The notes: a model not told the origin generated them from the sequence alone. A stretch of DNA of 64,000 nucleotides from Chitinophagales bacterium (GCA_015655125.1 JAATFP010000109.1:1798-65797); one strand, 5' to 3'. Positions 10,227-24,304 are shown, counted from the stretch's first letter. Numbers and translations: made by a program.

Positions 10227-10649
10227 ATGATACAAAGAATACAAAGTATTTGGTTGCTGCTTGCTTCGGTGCTTGCTTTTGCAGGATTAACATTGCCCTT
10301 TTACAGCGGCGTAAACGTTTCCGGCGAATTACAATATACGCTGAAAGGCACGGAGAACCTGGGTTTCCAGGTGTTAACCATCACCGTCGGACTGCTTGCA
10401 TTGATCGCTATTTTTATATACAAAAACAGGAAAACGCAGACCAGGATGGTTTTGGCGGCGGTAGTGTTACAACTTGGCCTCACCTATTTATATTATCATT
10501 ACACCAAAACGATTTTTATCAATTCACCTTATAATACGTTTGCGTTGTGGTCGGTTTTTCAGCCGTTGGTGCTGATCTTTCTGATATTGGCGATGCTTGG
10601 GATCAGGCGGGATAGTAAGATCATTGCGGATAGCAACAGGTTGCGCTAG
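10227..10649 (+). CDS. DUF4293-like membrane protein
   Basis: MIQRIQSIWLLLA start, four TM segments, IFxYKNRKxQ and C-terminal IRRDxKIIADSNRLR. Start moved to ATG 10227. Confidence 0.8.
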   Translation: MIQRIQSIWLLLASVLAFAGLTLPFYSGVNVSGELQYTLKGTENLGFQVLTITVGLLALIAIFIYKNRKTQTRMVLAAVVLQLGLTYLYYHYTKTIFINSPYNTFALWSVFQPLVLIFLILAMLGIRRDSKIIADSNRLR

Positions 10650-10697
10650 CAGCCGACAACGGACGACCGGCCACCGATGGAGTAAAATAATTTTAAG

Positions 10698-10723
10698 AGC
10701 CTGCGTTTTTCGCGGGCTTTTTT
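10698..10723 (+). terminator. Intrinsic terminator of glyA-DUF4293
   Basis: agcctgcg-ttttt-cgcgggct followed by a T run. Confidence 0.75.
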
Positions 10724-10834
10724 ATTATGTGTTAATGCTCCGGCCCGGAGGGTGTTCCAATTTAGCTGTTCGGTCGTCTCTTAGAAAATCTCAAAAGTTT
10801 TAACGCCCTTGCATTTTAATACAAAACATTTTCT

Positions 10835-10842
10835 TACATTAG
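10835..10842 (+). promoter_or_regulatory. Probable -7 element of the thr operon
   Basis: TACATTAG, one mismatch to TAnnTTTG, 5 nt before the leader ATG. No well-spaced -33 TTTG. Confidence 0.5.
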
Positions 10843-10847
10843 TGCCG

Positions 10848-10925
10848 ATGTTACAATCGACAAACAATACCGAACCTTCACAAAAAGTAGTTTTTAACAC
10901 TACAGCTACTATCACAACCCGCTAA
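10848..10925 (+). CDS. Thr/Ile-rich leader peptide (thrL-like), 25 aa
   Basis: MLQSTNNTEPSQKVVFNTTATITTR*: 7 Thr in total, 5 Thr + 1 Ile in the last 8 codons; ends 88 nt before thrA. Confidence 0.8.
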   Translation: MLQSTNNTEPSQKVVFNTTATITTR

Positions 10926-11013
10926 GGGTTGCACTTCTTCATATCACCAATCGGGCATCAGCTATCACTTTACAAGGTTTGTTCTATCAATCAATTTCAA
11001 TTAAACATTCAAT

Positions 11014-13458
11014 ATGCAGGTATTAAAATTTGGCGGAAGTTCTGTGGCCAATGCAGAAAATATAAAAAGGGTCATTGCAGTAATAAAAGAAAAAAATAAA
11101 GCCGACAAAACGGTGGCAGTGGTTTCTGCATTGGGAGGTATCACGGACCTGTTGCTGCATTGCAGCGAACTGGCCGCTTCCGGTAACGAAAGCTACAAAG
11201 AAAAGATCCACGAAATTGAACAGCGGCACCTCACCGCTGTGCGCGACCTTATCCTCGTTACCAATCAAAGCAGTGTGCTGAGTTTTGTAAAAACACAGTG
11301 CAACGAGATCGAAGACATTCTGAACGGAATATTTTTGCTGAAGGAACTATCTGCACGCACCAAAGACCGCATCGTAAGTTATGGCGAATTGCTTTCTTCA
11401 CGAATTATCGCCGCAGCGTTAAATACAAACAACACACCGGTTCAATGGATCGATTCAAGATCATTGATCGTTACAGATTCCGGCTTTGGAAATGCGGCTG
11501 TTGATTTTGAAGCTACCAATAAAAATATCCATGAATATTTTTCAGAAAATGCCGCATCGCTTTTTCTCGCTCCCGGGTTTATCGCATCCAATGAAGAAGG
11601 TATCCAGACAACCCTGGGCCGTGGCGGATCAGATTATACTGCGGCTATTTTTGCTGCTGCACTCAACGTGTCCAATTTTGAAATATGGACAGATGTATCC
11701 GGAATGATGACCGCCGATCCGCGACTGGTAAGCAACGCAAAGATTATCCCGCAGATATCTTACCAGGAAGCGATGGAACTTTCCCATTTCGGTGCGAAAG
11801 TGATTTACCCGCCCACCATTCAGCCGGTGATGAACAAAGGCATCAGTGTGTGGATCAAAAATACTTTTGCCCCGCAAGATACCGGAACGGTCATTCAGCA
11901 GGATCTTTACTCCAAATCAGATACTGCCATCACCGGCATTTCCAGCATCAGCAAGATCGCATTGATCAGTCTTGAAGGAAGCGGCATGGTTGGCATTCCT
12001 GGTTTTTCACGAAGATTGTTTGCCGCACTTGCAAGCGAAAAGATCAATGTGATCCTCATCACGCAAAGTTCTTCCGAACATTCCATCACGGTTGGCATCA
12101 ACGAAGAGAATGCACACACCGCCAAAAAAGTAATTGATATTGCCTTTGAATATGAAATCGCAGGTAAACGGGTGCAGCCGTTGATCGTGGAAACAAACCT
12201 GTCGATTGTTGCATTAGTAGGCGACCGGATGAAGAATCACACCGGCATCAGCGGCCGGCTGTTCAATGCGCTCGGAAAGAACGGGATCAATGTCCGCGCC
12301 ATTTCACAAGGCTCATCAGAGAGAAATATATCAACCGTTATAAGCAGCAACGATGTAAAAAAAGCGATCAACGTTATTCATGAAGCATTCTTCGAAACGG
12401 ACATTAAAGAAGTGAATGTATTCCTGGCAGGCGTTGGAAATGTTGGTGGAAGATTACTGGCACAAATTCAAAAACAACAACAATATTTGCTCGATAAACT
12501 ACGGTTGAAAATAAAAATTGTTGGTGTTGCCAACAGTAAAAAATTCGTGATGAATGAAGAAGGCATCAACCTCGAAAACTGGCAGGATGCATTGCAGCAT
12601 GGAACGGAAGCTTCCACCGGAGATTACATCGATGCCATCAGAAAAAAGAATCTCCGCAACATGGTTTTTGCCGACGTAACAGCAAACGAAAAGGTGGCCG
12701 GTTGTTACGACAGCCTGCTCGAAAAAACAATTGCGGTGGTGGCATGCAATAAAATCGCCTGCTCATCTTCTTACGGATATTACAAAAAGATAAAAGAACT
12801 CGCCACCGAATACAATGCACAGTTTTTATTTGAAACAAACGTTGGTGCGAGCTTGCCTATCATCGGCACATTGAATGATCTGATGCGCAGCGGCGACAGC
12901 ATTCACAAGATGCAGGCCGTATTAAGCGGAACGCTCAACTTCGTATTTAATAATTACGATGGTAAAAAAAGTTTTGCTTCTGTTGTAAAACAGGCGCAGG
13001 ATGAGGGTTATACCGAGCCTGATCCGCGCCTCGATCTCGGCGGAAAAGATGTTATGCGAAAAATCATGATCCTCGTACGCGAAAGTGGAAAGGAGGTTGA
13101 AATGGATGACATCGAAAACAATTCTTTCATGCCGGAAGAATGCATGCAGGGAAGCGTGGAAGATTTTTATGACTCTATGGAAAAGCATGAGGCGCATTTC
13201 AAAAAAATATTCGACGACGCCGTGAATGCAGGTTGTAAATTAAAATTTGTCGCCGGTTATAACAATGGAAGAGCATCCGTAGGTTTACAACACATCGATC
13301 CGCAGCATGACTTTTATCATTTGTATGGTAAAGACAATATTGTTTTATTTCACACAGACAGGTATGTTGATCAGCCGTTGGTGATAAAAGGCGCGGGCGC
13401 AGGTGCGGATGTAACGGCATCGGGAATTTTTGCGGATATTATAAGGGCGACAAAATAA
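11014..13458 (+). CDS. thrA: Bifunctional aspartate kinase / homoserine dehydrogenase I
   Basis: VLKFGGSSV, TLGRGGSDY, two ACT domains, GVGNVG Rossmann fold, ETNVGASLP, YTEPDPR. Confidence 0.98.
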   Translation: MQVLKFGGSSVANAENIKRVIAVIKEKNKADKTVAVVSALGGITDLLLHCSELAASGNESYKEKIHEIEQRHLTAVRDLILVTNQSSVLSFVKTQCNEIEDILNGIFLLKELSARTKDRIVSYGELLSSRIIAAALNTNNTPVQWIDSRSLIVTDSGFGNAAVDFEATNKNIHEYFSENAASLFLAPGFIASNEEGIQTTLGRGGSDYTAAIFAAALNVSNFEIWTDVSGMMTADPRLVSNAKIIPQISYQEAMELSHFGAKVIYPPTIQPVMNKGISVWIKNTFAPQDTGTVIQQDLYSKSDTAITGISSISKIALISLEGSGMVGIPGFSRRLFAALASEKINVILITQSSSEHSITVGINEENAHTAKKVIDIAFEYEIAGKRVQPLIVETNLSIVALVGDRMKNHTGISGRLFNALGKNGINVRAISQGSSERNISTVISSNDVKKAINVIHEAFFETDIKEVNVFLAGVGNVGGRLLAQIQKQQQYLLDKLRLKIKIVGVANSKKFVMNEEGINLENWQDALQHGTEASTGDYIDAIRKKNLRNMVFADVTANEKVAGCYDSLLEKTIAVVACNKIACSSSYGYYKKIKELATEYNAQFLFETNVGASLPIIGTLNDLMRSGDSIHKMQAVLSGTLNFVFNNYDGKKSFASVVKQAQDEGYTEPDPRLDLGGKDVMRKIMILVRESGKEVEMDDIENNSFMPEECMQGSVEDFYDSMEKHEAHFKKIFDDAVNAGCKLKFVAGYNNGRASVGLQHIDPQHDFYHLYGKDNIVLFHTDRYVDQPLVIKGAGAGADVTASGIFADIIRATK

Positions 13459-13562
13459 GGAATTTGAAATAAGAAGTACATACGAAAACATGTTTAAAAG
13501 CCGAAAGTCAATATACTTGATAAAATAAATTTCATTTCTTATTAAAATATAAACTTGAAAAG

Positions 13563-14492
13563 TTGAACATAATAAAAAAAATAACTGTCCGGTCTCCGGC
13601 CACCGTGGCCAATCTCGTTTGCGGATTCGACGTGCTGGGCATGTGCCTCAACGCGCCATACGATACTATGGAAGTTCATTTGCTGGATGAACAAAAAGTA
13701 ATCATTCATAGTACCGACGGATATCCGCTTCCGACTGATCCGATGTTAAATACAGCCGGCGCCCCTTTGGTAGAAATGATCGGCGAACTCAATGCAGGCA
13801 TCGGCTTCGAAGTTATGATCAACAAAAACATCAAACCCGGAAGCGGACTGGGTTCCAGCGCGGCAAGCGCGGCCGGCGCAGTAGTGGCGGCCAATCATTT
13901 GTTGGGAAATGTTTTCAGCAAACCAGATCTTGTCCGCTTTGCAATGACCGGAGAAAAAGTTGCTTCCGGTGTTAAACATGCCGACAACGTGGCGCCCTGC
14001 ATTTACGGTGGCGTAACGCTGATCCGCAGTATTTTTCCACTGGATATTGTAAGCATCCCGGTGCCGGAATTGTTTGTAACGGTGGTGCATCCGCAGATCG
14101 AAGTGAAGACGGCCGATGCGCGGCAGATATTGAGAAAGGAAGTGTTGCTGAAAGATGCGATCCGTCAATGGGGAAACATCGCCGGACTGGTGGCTGGCTT
14201 CATGCAAAACGATATGGAACTCATAGGGCGCAGCCTGGAAGACGTGATCATCGAACCTGTGAGAAGCATACTCATCCCGGCTTTTGATGAAGTTAAAAAC
14301 CGAAGCAAGATTGCAGGCGCATTGGGCGGCGGAATTTCCGGTTCGGGGCCATCCATTTTCATGCTAAGCAAAGAAGAAGCAACAGCAAAAAAAGTAGAAA
14401 CGGAAATGCAGGAAATTTATACCAAGATCGACCTGCCATTTTATACTTATGTAACAACGATTAATAATGAAGGCGTAAAAATAAACCCGTAA
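13563..14492 (+). CDS. thrB: Homoserine kinase
   Basis: PATVANLVCGFD, GHMP motif PGSGLGSSAAS, HADNVAP, ISGSGPS. TTG start. Confidence 0.97.
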   Translation: MNIIKKITVRSPATVANLVCGFDVLGMCLNAPYDTMEVHLLDEQKVIIHSTDGYPLPTDPMLNTAGAPLVEMIGELNAGIGFEVMINKNIKPGSGLGSSAASAAGAVVAANHLLGNVFSKPDLVRFAMTGEKVASGVKHADNVAPCIYGGVTLIRSIFPLDIVSIPVPELFVTVVHPQIEVKTADARQILRKEVLLKDAIRQWGNIAGLVAGFMQNDMELIGRSLEDVIIEPVRSILIPAFDEVKNRSKIAGALGGGISGSGPSIFMLSKEEATAKKVETEMQEIYTKIDLPFYTYVTTINNEGVKINP

Positions 14493-14527
14493 GGTCTTTA
14501 AAAACGTTGCAGGTTTTACAAAATAAT

Positions 14528-15826
14528 ATGAAATATTTCAGCACCAGTAACAACGCATCAAAAGTAGATTTTAAAGAAGCTACCGTTAACGGCCAGGCAC
14601 CCGATAAGGGGTTGTATTTTCCTGAGTACATTCCGCAGCTGCCAAAAGAAATCATTGATAACATTGATCAATATTCAAATGAGGATATTGCACTTGAAGT
14701 GATCCGGCCTTATGTTGGCGACACGATCCCGGAAGAAGTGTTGAAAAAGATCGTTTCCGAAACAATCAATTTTTCTATTCCGCTTGTCGCTGTTACAGAG
14801 AACATTTCTTCTCTCGAACTGTATCACGGACCAACATTGGCTTTCAAAGACATTGGTGCCCGTTTCATGAGCAGGTGCCTGAGTTATTTTGTTCGCGAAG
14901 AAAATAAAAAGGTAACGGTGTTGGTCGCTACTTCCGGGGATACCGGCGGCGCGGTTGCCAACGGCTTTTATGATGTTCCGAATGTAGACGTGATCATTTT
15001 ATATCCGTCAGGGAAAGTGAGCAGCGTGCAGGAAAAACAATTGACGACGCTGGGAAAAAATATCCATGCGCTGGAAATAAAAGGCACTTTCGACGATTGT
15101 CAACAGATGGTGAAAGAAGCGTTCATGGATGACGAACTGACGGGCAAAATATTTTTAACATCTGCAAATTCCATCAACGTGGCGCGTTGGCTGCCACAAC
15201 AATTTTATTATTTCTTCGCTTACAGGCAATGGGCCGACAAAAAAAATCCACCTGTAATTTCGGTACCGAGCGGCAATTTTGGAAATATCTGTGCGGGAAT
15301 TTTGGCACATGCATCCGGCTTGCCGGTAAAACACTTCATTGCCGCATGCAATGCGAACGACGTAGTACCGGAATTTTTACGTTCCAATAATTACATTCCC
15401 AAAAAAGCGGTAGCCACTATTTCAAATGCAATGGATGTGGGCAACCCCAGTAATTTCGTTCGCATCATGGAAATATTTTCGGGAAAAACAGATGAACTGA
15501 AAAATAATTTATCCGGCGCAACAGTTTCCGATGAAGAAACAAAAACAACTATCAAAATGGTGTTTGAAGAAGAAGGCTATTTACTCGACCCTCATGGCGC
15601 AGTGGGTTATTTTGCGTTGAATGAATACCTGCGAAATCACCCGAACGAAAAAGGCCTGGTCGTTGAAACGGCGCACCCGGTAAAGTTTTACGATGTGGTG
15701 GAACCGGTGATAGGAACGAAGGTTTCTATTCCGGAAATTGTAGAAGTGCAATTAAAACTGAGAAAAAAGAGTGTATTGATGGAAAGTGATTATGAAAGCT
15801 TGAAAGCGTTCTTGTTGGGAAGATAA
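14528..15826 (+). CDS. thrC: Threonine synthase
   Basis: LELYHGPTLAFKDIG (PLP lysine), ATSGDTG, SANSIN, VPSGNFGN. Start moved to ATG 14528. Confidence 0.97.
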   Translation: MKYFSTSNNASKVDFKEATVNGQAPDKGLYFPEYIPQLPKEIIDNIDQYSNEDIALEVIRPYVGDTIPEEVLKKIVSETINFSIPLVAVTENISSLELYHGPTLAFKDIGARFMSRCLSYFVREENKKVTVLVATSGDTGGAVANGFYDVPNVDVIILYPSGKVSSVQEKQLTTLGKNIHALEIKGTFDDCQQMVKEAFMDDELTGKIFLTSANSINVARWLPQQFYYFFAYRQWADKKNPPVISVPSGNFGNICAGILAHASGLPVKHFIAACNANDVVPEFLRSNNYIPKKAVATISNAMDVGNPSNFVRIMEIFSGKTDELKNNLSGATVSDEETKTTIKMVFEEEGYLLDPHGAVGYFALNEYLRNHPNEKGLVVETAHPVKFYDVVEPVIGTKVSIPEIVEVQLKLRKKSVLMESDYESLKAFLLGR

Positions 15827-23284: not shown

Positions 23285-23333
23285 CGATAAATGGGTTGAC
23301 ATCCCATTGGGATGTCAACCCATTTATCGTACA
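23281..23333. repeat. Perfect 53-bp palindrome (26-1-26)
   Basis: tgtacgataaatgggttgacatccca-t-tgggatgtcaacccatttatcgtaca. Confidence 0.95.
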
Positions 23334-24304
23334 AAATAGCTCACCACCACCACCATCGCCACCATCGCCCAATGAAGAAACAACGGCACCCACTTTTTTT
23401 CAGGGTAAAAGAAGGCTGCAGCCATAATTAGAGACAGCGGAACTGCCGTCAATATCCAGTAATTAAAGCCAGGAACAATATTCAAAAAAGGAATTCCCGC
23501 CGCAACAATTAGGTACAAATAAACAAGCTGCCAGCTCTTTCGGGTCTGCACCACCTGTCGACGAAGGTTGTTTTGTATGAAAACAATTCCGATCAAACCC
23601 GTTATCAGCAACAAAATGATGGCGGCCAGCGTCCATCCCGATTCATAAAAAGTGGGTAACATCAGCCCCGTCTGCGGTAGCCGGTAAGTCTTCCATTTGT
23701 CCGTGAGAAATAACCATGCACCAAAGAAGTAAAAAGGAGTACCAATACCTACGAGCGCCATTAACCACTCCGGAAGTTTGAAAGGACGCGCGATAGCCAG
23801 TCCTACCAATGCCAGCAAGGCAAATAAAATGCTGGGGTAATAAAAAAAAGTACAAACACCAATCGTCAATCCGATATTGAATATAGCCGTCTTTGGCGAA
23901 GAATGATTGTGAAGGAAACAAAGTTGCGACCAAACCCAGATCAGGAATGTATTAACTATAAGAGGAGCCGACAGGCAGAACCAGTCTGCAAAAAGGGAAG
24001 TTACCAGCAGGTAACTCATCCCTACAAGGTAGTTTGGCCGTTGCAGCATTCGCTGTGAATTAACCACGGTATTAAAACTGATGGCTTGTATGTATAATAA
24101 AACAAAACCAATGATACTGTAGATAATCGGCGAGGACGCTCCTGCCGGACGGATCAATTGCAAAAAATAATTATACAAAACACCAGCAGATACCTGTGCC
24201 TTCGGAACTTCCGGGTGCAGAAAGATGGCAAACTTAAGGACAAGTCCGTACACGAAAAGTAGAAAATTGTTGTAAGGATTGTTTGCTTTGAAGGTTGCTA
24301 TCAC
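23324..24304 (-). CDS. Conserved Bacteroidota multi-pass membrane protein (DUF6427-like)
   Basis: About 10 hydrophobic segments, 326 aa, GTG start. Family name from recall only. Confidence 0.7.
   Translation of the reverse strand: MIATFKANNPYNNFLLFVYGLVLKFAIFLHPEVPKAQVSAGVLYNYFLQLIRPAGASSPIIYSIIGFVLLYIQAISFNTVVNSQRMLQRPNYLVGMSYLLVTSLFADWFCLSAPLIVNTFLIWVWSQLCFLHNHSSPKTAIFNIGLTIGVCTFFYYPSILFALLALVGLAIARPFKLPEWLMALVGIGTPFYFFGAWLFLTDKWKTYRLPQTGLMLPTFYESGWTLAAIILLLITGLIGIVFIQNNLRRQVVQTRKSWQLVYLYLIVAAGIPFLNIVPGFNYWILTAVPLSLIMAAAFFYPEKKWVPLFLHWAMVAMVVVVSYFVR

Follow-up and report, generated by a model that had tools for sequence, protein, structure and literature searches.

The window analysed here, a 64,000-nucleotide stretch of DNA from a Chitinophagales bacterium, carries the operon thrA-thrB-thrC. 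The intergenic region ahead of thrA (10650-11013) is bounded on its other side by a DUF4293 gene, which stops at 10649 and has its own strong intrinsic terminator behind it (10695-10721). Read from the window sequence, a small ORF of 25 codons, MLQSTNNTEPSQKVVFNTTATITTR*, runs through this region from an ATG at 10848 to a TAA at 10923-10925, with 88 nt between its stop codon and the thrA start. Five Thr codons and one Ile codon are found among the eight codons ahead of its Arg codon. A preliminary description of this DNA had proposed an unannotated Thr/Ile-sensing leader peptide with its stop codon in the loop of a small hairpin. The ORF is present at these positions with the same sequence, the hairpin caaccc-gctaa-gggttg was found at 10915-10931 with the TAA in its loop, and the base counts that had been given (21 C and 7 G in the ORF, 20 C and 8 G in 10931-11013) are exact. 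The features of the locus are as follows.

10809-10842, + strand: probable promoter, with a -33 TTG at 10809-10811 and a -7 box TACATTAG at 10835-10842 (sequence; boxes of relatives)
10848-10925, + strand: leader peptide ORF, 25 codons (homologous ORFs at about 90 Chitinophagaceae loci; codon periodicity)
10887-10903, + strand: hairpin P0, gtagt-ttttaac-actac (MFE folds)
10899-10919, + strand: regulatory codon run ACT ACA GCT ACT ATC ACA ACC, encoding TTATITT (sequence and homologs)
10915-10931, + strand: hairpin P1, 6 bp, with 5' arm caaccc (10915-10920), loop gctaa (10921-10925) and 3' arm gggttg (10926-10931) (covariation, 85 sequences)
10932-10948, + strand: U-rich single-stranded spacer (10932-10939) and CAUAUC box CATATCACC (10940-10948) (85 sequences)
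10953-10964, + strand: short hairpin P2, GGGC-atca-GCTa (arm covariation)
10965-11013, + strand: A/U-rich variable spacer up to the thrA start codon, without a terminator (scan and homologs)
11014-15826, + strand: regulated operon thrA-thrB-thrC (Pfam)
11014-13458, + strand: thrA, aspartokinase-homoserine dehydrogenase (Pfam AA_kinase, ACT and Homoserine_dh)
13563-14492, + strand: thrB (Pfam GHMP kinase)
14507-15826, + strand: thrC (Pfam Thr_synth_N and PALP)

The -7 promoter box of the Bacteroidota is of the type TAnnTTTG. In the window the leader ATG lies only 5 nt past the box TACATTAG, and boxes of the form TAnnTT[TAC]G stand 4-5 nt (mostly 5) ahead of the ATG in 10 close relatives; another clade has a box TAATTTAG at 11 nt and a GTG start. 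Because only 5 nt separate the box from the ATG, the leader ORF is probably leaderless or nearly so, the transcription start being placed here by the promoter box. A second ORF past the leader stop, a 56-codon open frame from a TTG at 10929, was rejected, as indels between P1 and the box break its frame in homologs.

Conservation of the codon run and of the RNA elements

Taken alone, a single Thr-rich small ORF is not significant, because the whole genome has about 20 small ORFs that start with ATG and contain 5 or more Thr within 8 codons. Among the usable thrA loci of the same genus (Ferruginibacter), 16 of 19 have the ORF, which is 24-32 codons long, has the Thr/Ile run at its end, usually followed by TTR-stop, and stops 78-99 nt ahead of thrA. 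The element is carried by at least 72 of 80 named Chitinophagaceae thrA loci (from Ferruginibacter, Niastella, Terrimonas, Chitinophaga, Puia, Sediminibacterium, Longitalea and Ginsengibacter), a homologous ORF was found at about 90 Chitinophagaceae thrA loci overall, and a Thr/Ile run with synonymous variation was seen in about 100 loci of four families. The last ten codons of the homologs hold on average 5.2 Thr and 2.2 Ile, while the N-terminal half drifts, and synonymous codons are freely mixed (ACA 183, ACT 160, ACC 154, ACG 31, ATT 184 and ATC 34). Entropy across the run has a 3-nt periodicity, rising from 0.4-0.9 bits at first codon positions to 1.3-1.65 bits at third positions; this is a coding signature, indicating that the run is translated. 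The final residue, R and sometimes L or P, tracks the hairpin sequence and is not conserved for itself. Judged from these alignments, conservation effectively excludes a non-functional ORF, and we regard the leader ORF as genuine. Alignment of thrA upstream regions across the Chitinophagaceae, which had been suggested as a check of the original proposal, thus found the Thr codons conserved with synonymous variation, and the conserved run in relatives supports a Thr/Ile-sensing leader peptide ahead of thrABC.

The RNA that encloses and follows the run is also conserved. In P1 the last Thr codons form the 5' arm, and the stop codon lies within the loop. Across 85 sequences, pairing was found in 87.5% of cells, compared with at most 47% in slid-partner controls, and compensatory changes occur at 7 of the 9 pairs (29 cells); the covariation score was reached by none of 500 shuffles. 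In homologs the stem is 6-9 bp long, with variants such as CAAUCCGC/GCGGAUUG, CAAUCCC/GGGAUUG, ACUCCGC/GCGGAGU and UACCCC/GGGGUA, and one genome has lost the loop stop codon by mutation, its ORF running on to a TAA immediately past P1. The 3' arm of P0 is formed by the first Thr codons of the run. In most of 102 homologs the P0 region is more stably folded than shuffled sequence, with a mean z of -1.38 and z below -2 in 40% of them; the signal is weak in the window itself (z -0.69), and the arm sequences vary between taxa.

Past P1 and the 8-nt U-rich spacer lies an almost invariant box with the consensus CAUAUYAYC; its ATA is common to all 85 sequences, and its flanking C and T reach a conservation of at least 90%. 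Across different families, despite their differing P1, the start of the box is 17-20 nt past the first base of the stop codon, close to the expected front edge of a terminating ribosome. The P2 hairpin that follows changes its arms between taxa (GGC/GCU, GGGC/GCUU, UAGGA/UCCUA, UGGGA/UCCCA, GGCA/UGCC and GGGGU/ACCUU), and its score of 9.43 was matched by none of 200 chimeras (8.69 ± 0.20). In about half of the Chitinophagaceae leaders the box recurs within the ORF, 77-98 nt farther upstream, as a second copy that encodes a recurrent H-I-(I/T)-(P/S)-S and is degenerate in the window. Of this architecture the preliminary description had recognised the hairpin, but had missed P0, the covariation of P1, the CAUAUC box, P2 and the wide spread in the Bacteroidota.

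A covariance model was built from the run, P1, the box and P2 and was searched in 401 Bacteroidota genomes, 47 of which matched, with one match per genome. The matches include all 5 genomes of the same genus and 10 of 17 from other genera of the Chitinophagaceae (15 of 22 for the family); other families of the order, among those listed, gave none in 12 genomes. A further 9 matching genomes belong to two other families of the same class (kinship labels f19 and f21), and 23 belong to a family (f45) whose kinship label places it in another class of the phylum. All 29 matches with a locus lie at most 210 nt upstream of the ThrA start, and nine weaker matches, inspected separately, all precede thrA. 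In the window's own genome the module was found once, and this single occurrence led us to reject the idea of a general expression platform. The distant forms have: a Thr/Ile run ending ...ACC CCU UAG; a P1 of the form UACCCC-UUA-GGGGUA; a box ACAUAUCAC at the same distance; a P2 that covaries and is a long hairpin in f19; and a short C/A-rich or A-rich spacer followed by thrA, without a terminator.

Search for a terminator and an antiterminator

A scan of 10400-11400 found no plus-strand terminator from the end of the ORF to thrA, nor any within the first 390 nt of thrA itself; the sole strong terminator in that range is the one past the DUF4293 gene (10695-10721). No consistent GC hairpin with a U-tract was found from the ORF to thrA in 87 homologs or in the other families, so that the missing intrinsic terminator, as claimed at the outset, is borne out in the window and is a conserved property of the homologs. 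A stricter filter (at least 5 bp, at least 3 GC and at least 5 U of 8) was passed by only 28 of the 87 homologs; P1 and its U-rich tail account for most of all the sites listed. In the same genome a terminator, AAGGGCUUACUGAAAAGUGAGCCCUUUUUUU, stands between the his leader MILSFVPSMQNFIHIHHHHTLPHGKLC (contig C82) and hisG; since this terminator is of the textbook kind, the organism is able to make classical attenuators. Complementarity scans and chimera tests revealed no conserved antiterminator partner for a freed P1 3' arm or for the box. Of the hallmarks of a classical attenuator, tandem Thr/Ile codons directly ahead of thrABC and coding-type conservation are present, whereas an intrinsic terminator and a mutually exclusive antiterminator were not found in these searches. 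An Rfam scan of 10400-11300 at E up to 10 gave no match to Thr_leader (RF00506) and none of any kind on the leader (10848-11013).

Several other structures were considered and rejected. P2 with a U-run could serve as a terminator in one Ferruginibacter clade only; the U-run is absent in the window, and the stem has 3-4 bp with G-U pairs. Pairing of the P1 5' arm with the GGGC of P2 was discarded, as GGGC is unchanged where P1 changes, and a T-box-like reading of tRNA by AYC and UGGN in the box was discarded because these positions are not conserved. In some clades the box region reads TAYCTTTG, resembling a -7 box; an internal promoter would leave the invariant CATAT unexplained, has no properly spaced -33 element and is missing from the window. 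Pairing of the box with the leader's own start region (GUGGUA/UAUCAC) recurs in several clades, some duplexes reaching -10 to -14 kcal/mol. Its excess over a shuffled box is weak (z -0.39), a chimera test found no covariation (-7.36 for own and -7.41 for other partners), and the pairing was rejected. In near-leaderless relatives this pairing is irrelevant.

The probable sensor and its possible outputs

We consider it highly probable (roughly 0.9) that the module is a ribosome-mediated sensor of Thr and Ile. A scarcity of charged tRNA-Thr or tRNA-Ile would slow translation of the run and, as the run lies between P0 and P1, a stalled ribosome would have to melt both hairpins. For the output, our tentative preference, held at somewhat less than even odds, is Rho-dependent premature termination that is relieved by a ribosome stalled on the Thr/Ile run. 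The stalling, the loading of Rho, the pausing and the direction of regulation are steps that we infer, and they would proceed as follows: with Thr and Ile plentiful, the ribosome would be released at the stop codon, leaving about 90 nt of C-rich, G-poor leader RNA naked; Rho would load on this RNA and halt RNA polymerase ahead of or early in thrA, with P1 and the U-rich/CAUAUC stretch probably forming a hairpin-dependent pause that keeps the polymerase within reach; and, with Thr or Ile scarce, the stalled ribosome would cover the C-rich stretch, block Rho and melt P1, allowing the polymerase to continue into thrABC.

Several observations are consistent with this proposal. A rho gene is present, with a Rho_RNA_bind domain (PF07497, 123 bits; G000:C40:107717-107938) in a 551-codon open frame, which fits the N-terminal insertions reported for Bacteroidota Rho (PMC12360218). 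The composition of the leader ORF (21 C to 7 G in 78 nt) is seen in 0.3% of the genome's 78-nt windows, and the leader ORFs of homologs have a median C/G of 2.67, with 87% at 2 or above. In the 60 nt ahead of the Thr run, C exceeds G in 97% of 102 homologs, compared with 64% of ordinary 5' regions, and this excess before the run persists where the peptide is free to vary. The U-rich/box stretch lies 10-12 nt downstream of P1, a geometry which resembles that of a hairpin-dependent pause such as the trpL 1:2 hairpin. The regulatory sign is right for Rho, with release exposing C-rich RNA and stalling covering it, and tnaC, speFL and cruR are established cases in which a Rho site, inside a uORF or adjoining it, is masked by a stalled ribosome (PMC12360218).

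Other points count against Rho. The C over G bias is partly forced by the Thr codons (ACN); P0 and P1, in the absence of a ribosome, sequester part of the C-rich run and should hinder loading; and a ribosome halted at the first hungry codon would leave about 100 nt of RNA uncovered on its downstream side, where Rho could in principle load. A near-invariant CAUAUC exceeds what a Rho site usually needs, which suggests a sequence-specific partner, and Rho is not known to read sequence in this way. The spacer ahead of thrA, whose C-rich, G-poor composition had been the original evidence for Rho, has this composition in the window (20 C and 8 G) but not in homologs, where its median C/G of 1.3 is at the level normal for 5' regions of the genome (1.2); that part of the argument therefore falls away, and what is conserved is the C-rich, G-poor leader ORF. 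It is also possible, if doubtful, that the module is a ribosome-gated bipartite entry site for Rho or another factor. The boxes CAUAUCAYC near the 5' end of the ORF and past P1 would then be joined by the folding of P0 and P1, and a ribosome on the run would melt both hairpins and sit between the boxes, so that the factor could not engage; phage lambda tR1, in which rutA and rutB are brought together around boxB, may be likened to it. If true, this would amount to phylum-wide, terminator-free amino-acid attenuation in the Bacteroidota, operating from a leaderless leader ORF.

Outputs that bypass termination by Rho must be weighed against it. An AU-rich single strand between two hairpins is the usual layout of endonuclease sites, and the AU-rich strand between P1 and P2 fits it, so that a site of the RNase E/G or RNase Y kind might lie in the U-rich spacer and box. 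Cleavage there would inactivate or destabilise the thrABC message; a ribosome on the last Thr codons or the stop codon would melt P1 and extend as far as the edge of the box, thereby protecting the site. In a variant, stalling would stabilise the near-leaderless mRNA against 5'-end-dependent decay, as in ermC. The regulatory sign would be correct, and the placement of the box 17-20 nt past the stop codon in different classes despite differing P1, approximately at the front edge of a terminating ribosome, also agrees with ribosome-protected processing. A 5' end mapped by dRNA-seq 10 nt ahead of the thrA AUG of B. thetaiotaomicron (PMC7366714 supplement) is a lead only; the thrA leader of that species falls outside this motif. 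No nuclease is known to recognise CAUAUC, and on the whole we consider processing unlikely. We give an equally low rating to a trans-acting partner, either protein or small RNA, whose binding site would be the box presented by P1 and P2 and perhaps also the upstream CAUAUCAYC copy early in the ORF. Such a partner would repress thrABC unless a ribosome stalled on the run remodels P1 and so keeps it from binding. In favour are the near-invariant ATA and its flanks, in a single-stranded context and in four families, and the second copy 77-98 nt upstream in about half of the Chitinophagaceae leaders. However, that copy is degenerate in the window, no candidate factor is known and no conserved neighbour gene was noted, and such a two-component scheme is less economical.

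Two further readings seem less probable still. P1 with its U-rich tail could be a cryptic, weak intrinsic terminator or pause site, perhaps assisted by NusA/NusG and modulated by the ribosome; P1 with AYAUUUUCAUAU is terminator-like by lax rules in roughly one third of homologs, and the distance from hairpin to box is constant. The window's tail, CACUUCUUCAUAUC, fails even lax rules, however, and the genome's real terminators carry long U-tracts directly past the stem. Moreover, with Thr plentiful a coupled ribosome, or one at the stop codon, would cover the P1 5' arm and prevent termination, whereas with Thr scarce a ribosome at the first Thr codons, about 25-30 nt upstream, would leave P1 free. 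Since P1 would thus form when Thr is scarce, the sign is wrong, by this reasoning, for a biosynthetic operon; with its U-tract also weak, P1 was rejected as a terminator, and the broader reading has, in our opinion, little chance of being correct. The chances are even slimmer for control of thrA translation, in which a stalled ribosome would bring about a refolding that exposes the thrA start region. Translation initiation in the Bacteroidota proceeds without Shine-Dalgarno pairing and depends on unstructured, A-rich start regions, so that small structural changes could matter, and CAUAU is able to pair with AUAUG at the window's thrA start. In partition function calculations, however, the unpaired probability of the thrA start was 0.594 in the free and 0.587 in the stalled state, and a rise above 0.1 was seen in none of 87 homologs; the modelled ribosome thus leaves the start region unchanged, which disfavours the translational route that had been put forward at the beginning. 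The folding of the 87 homologs likewise did not show the erm/cat-type behaviour of a stalled ribosome opening a sequestered start. Duplexes between the box and the thrA start are equal to those of a shuffled box (z -0.04), and the sequence ahead of the thrA AUG is not conserved. Rho-dependent termination, relieved by the stalled ribosome, stays our preferred, if tentative, output.

Relation to known leaders

Leader-peptide attenuation is textbook knowledge, but nearly all of the examples that define it come from proteobacteria and end in an intrinsic terminator. The nearest relative of the present element in function is the enterobacterial thrL (Rfam Thr_leader, RF00506), which likewise has a short ORF with a Thr/Ile run immediately ahead of thrA-thrB-thrC and probably the same logic, in which the speed of the ribosome on the run reports the supply of Thr and Ile. 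The element differs from thrL in that: it does not match the RF00506 model and has no terminator/antiterminator pair; its run directly adjoins a stop codon located in a hairpin loop; its ORF is probably leaderless; and its CAUAUC box and P2 have no counterpart in thrL. In the 1:2 pause hairpin of E. coli trpL, regulatory codons occupy the 5' arm and the leader stop codon lies in the loop, and P1 has the same layout. Segment 2 of trpL, however, goes on to pair with segment 3, preventing the 3:4 terminator, and there is no equivalent of 3:4 here. With tnaC, speFL and cruR, where a stalled ribosome masks a Rho site and there is no intrinsic terminator (PMC12360218), the element would share the use of Rho that we propose; in those systems, however, the nascent peptide detects a small molecule and the ribosome stalls at the stop codon or close to it, while here tRNA charging would be sensed through a codon run.

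Leader-peptide attenuators are also known within the phylum, namely the Bacteroidetes trp leader motif and the ilvE and hisG leaders of Flavobacterium psychrophilum (PMC9723704 supplement). These share with the thr element the phylum and a codon-run leader peptide, and the organism's own his leader is classical; the his examples inspected end in a clear GC hairpin with a U-tract, in contrast to the thr module, which has none. F. psychrophilum offers no thrA leader for comparison. In B. thetaiotaomicron a transcription start has been mapped 35 nt ahead of an 18-codon sORF upstream of thrA, and a second 5' end, just past a hairpin, lacks TEX enrichment in one of the two conditions (PMC7366714 supplement). 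The sORF in its thrA leader, as read from gut metagenome contigs, is a different one and poor in Thr, and the leader does not belong to this motif. Our literature search found no description of a thr leader in the Bacteroidota, and Rfam holds no family matching the module. The abstract of Vitreschak et al. 2004 reportedly mentions candidate attenuators in 'Bacteroidetes/Chlorobi'.

As far as sequence comparison can tell, the element is a known kind of Thr/Ile sensor combined with an undescribed, widely conserved output module. A Thr/Ile sensor is here joined to an output other than the classical one: a hairpin whose loop contains the stop codon comes first, then an invariant CAUAUC box, then another hairpin. 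Several families of the Bacteroidota, drawn from two classes, share this output module, which would be a new Rfam cis-regulatory family and would add an unannotated small ORF to many genomes. As the motif is compact (about 170 nt) and several of its carriers are cultivable, among them Ferruginibacter yonginensis, F. paludis, Niastella populi, Terrimonas ginsenosidimutans and Chitinophaga, it is directly testable. In the Bacteroidota, translation starts without Shine-Dalgarno pairing and Rho carries unusual insertions. Termination by Rho, nuclease cleavage, a pause or a binding factor may each turn out to be the output, and knowing which could reveal how this phylum links transcription and translation with RNA decay.

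The start of the thr leader ORF and its variants in relatives

A gap of 5 nt lies between the putative -7 promoter box, TACATTAG, and the ATG of the Thr/Ile-rich leader ORF (box and ATG at window positions 10835-10850). This box-to-ATG spacing is kept at 4-5 nt in ten close relatives, being 5 nt in most. The mRNA of the leader peptide therefore probably has no 5' UTR, or one of at most 2 nt.

The leader has decayed in three genomes of the same genus:

L015, genome G015: P1, the hairpin holding the stop codon in its loop, is retained (TAACCCGCCAGGGTTA); neither the Thr run nor the stop codon survives
L018, genome G018: the sole remnant is an ACCCGAAAGGGT hairpin
L017, genome G008: no recognisable remnant of the thr leader was found

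These three leaders are natural variants in which regulation would be lost. A different alteration is seen in a Chitinophagaceae MAG (OZ245715.1), where the P1-loop stop codon is changed to CAA and the ORF ends instead at a TAA directly 3' of the P1 3' arm (…TTRQGL, then stop). In one genus of a family from another Bacteroidota class (L127 and relatives, family f45), the spacer between the short hairpin P2 and thrA is occupied by up to five tandem copies of CUCACAA, and is rich in C/A and poor in G.

Two genome bins call for comment. A contig labelled “MAG: Citrobacter freundii” (QFQQ01000034.1) has a Chitinophagaceae-type thrA (67% identical) together with the thr leader motif, and this bin is probably mislabelled or contaminated. 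The single bin G017 holds two full-length thrA genes (contigs C8 and C7), each 73% identical to the window thrA, reflecting either a duplication or two strains binned together.

The thrA leader of B. thetaiotaomicron type

L151, 5880-6085, human gut metagenome contig: thrA leader, B. thetaiotaomicron-like

In this leader, a small ORF of 18-19 codons (MMKYYPHTVTSMCTMTLWG, then stop) reads through an ACCC-UUU-GGGGU hairpin, and a second hairpin, CAAUCACCC...GGGGAUUG, lies 21 nt upstream of the thrA AUG. A B. thetaiotaomicron 5' end listed in the supplement of PMC7366714 maps to -10 relative to the thrA AUG, which is just 3' of this second hairpin.

His-rich frames and the his leader of the same genome

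A small His-rich ORF (MSTHLSYKIAHHHHHRHHRPMKKQRHPLFF...) at window positions ~23312-23432 (+) adjoins a perfect palindrome. This ORF is probably a chance frame, because the 1.3 kb downstream of it contain no his gene.

A his leader is present elsewhere in the genome, outside the window:

G000 contig C82, 31004-31087 (+ coordinates), minus strand: unannotated His-rich leader peptide, MILSFVPSMQNFIHIHHHHTLPHGKLC

Downstream of this leader lies an intrinsic terminator of the textbook type, AAGGGCTTACTGAAAAGTGAGCCCTTTTTTT, with hisG (Pfam HisG match, 181 bits) after it. This arrangement is a classical attenuator, in contrast to the thr leader of the same genome.
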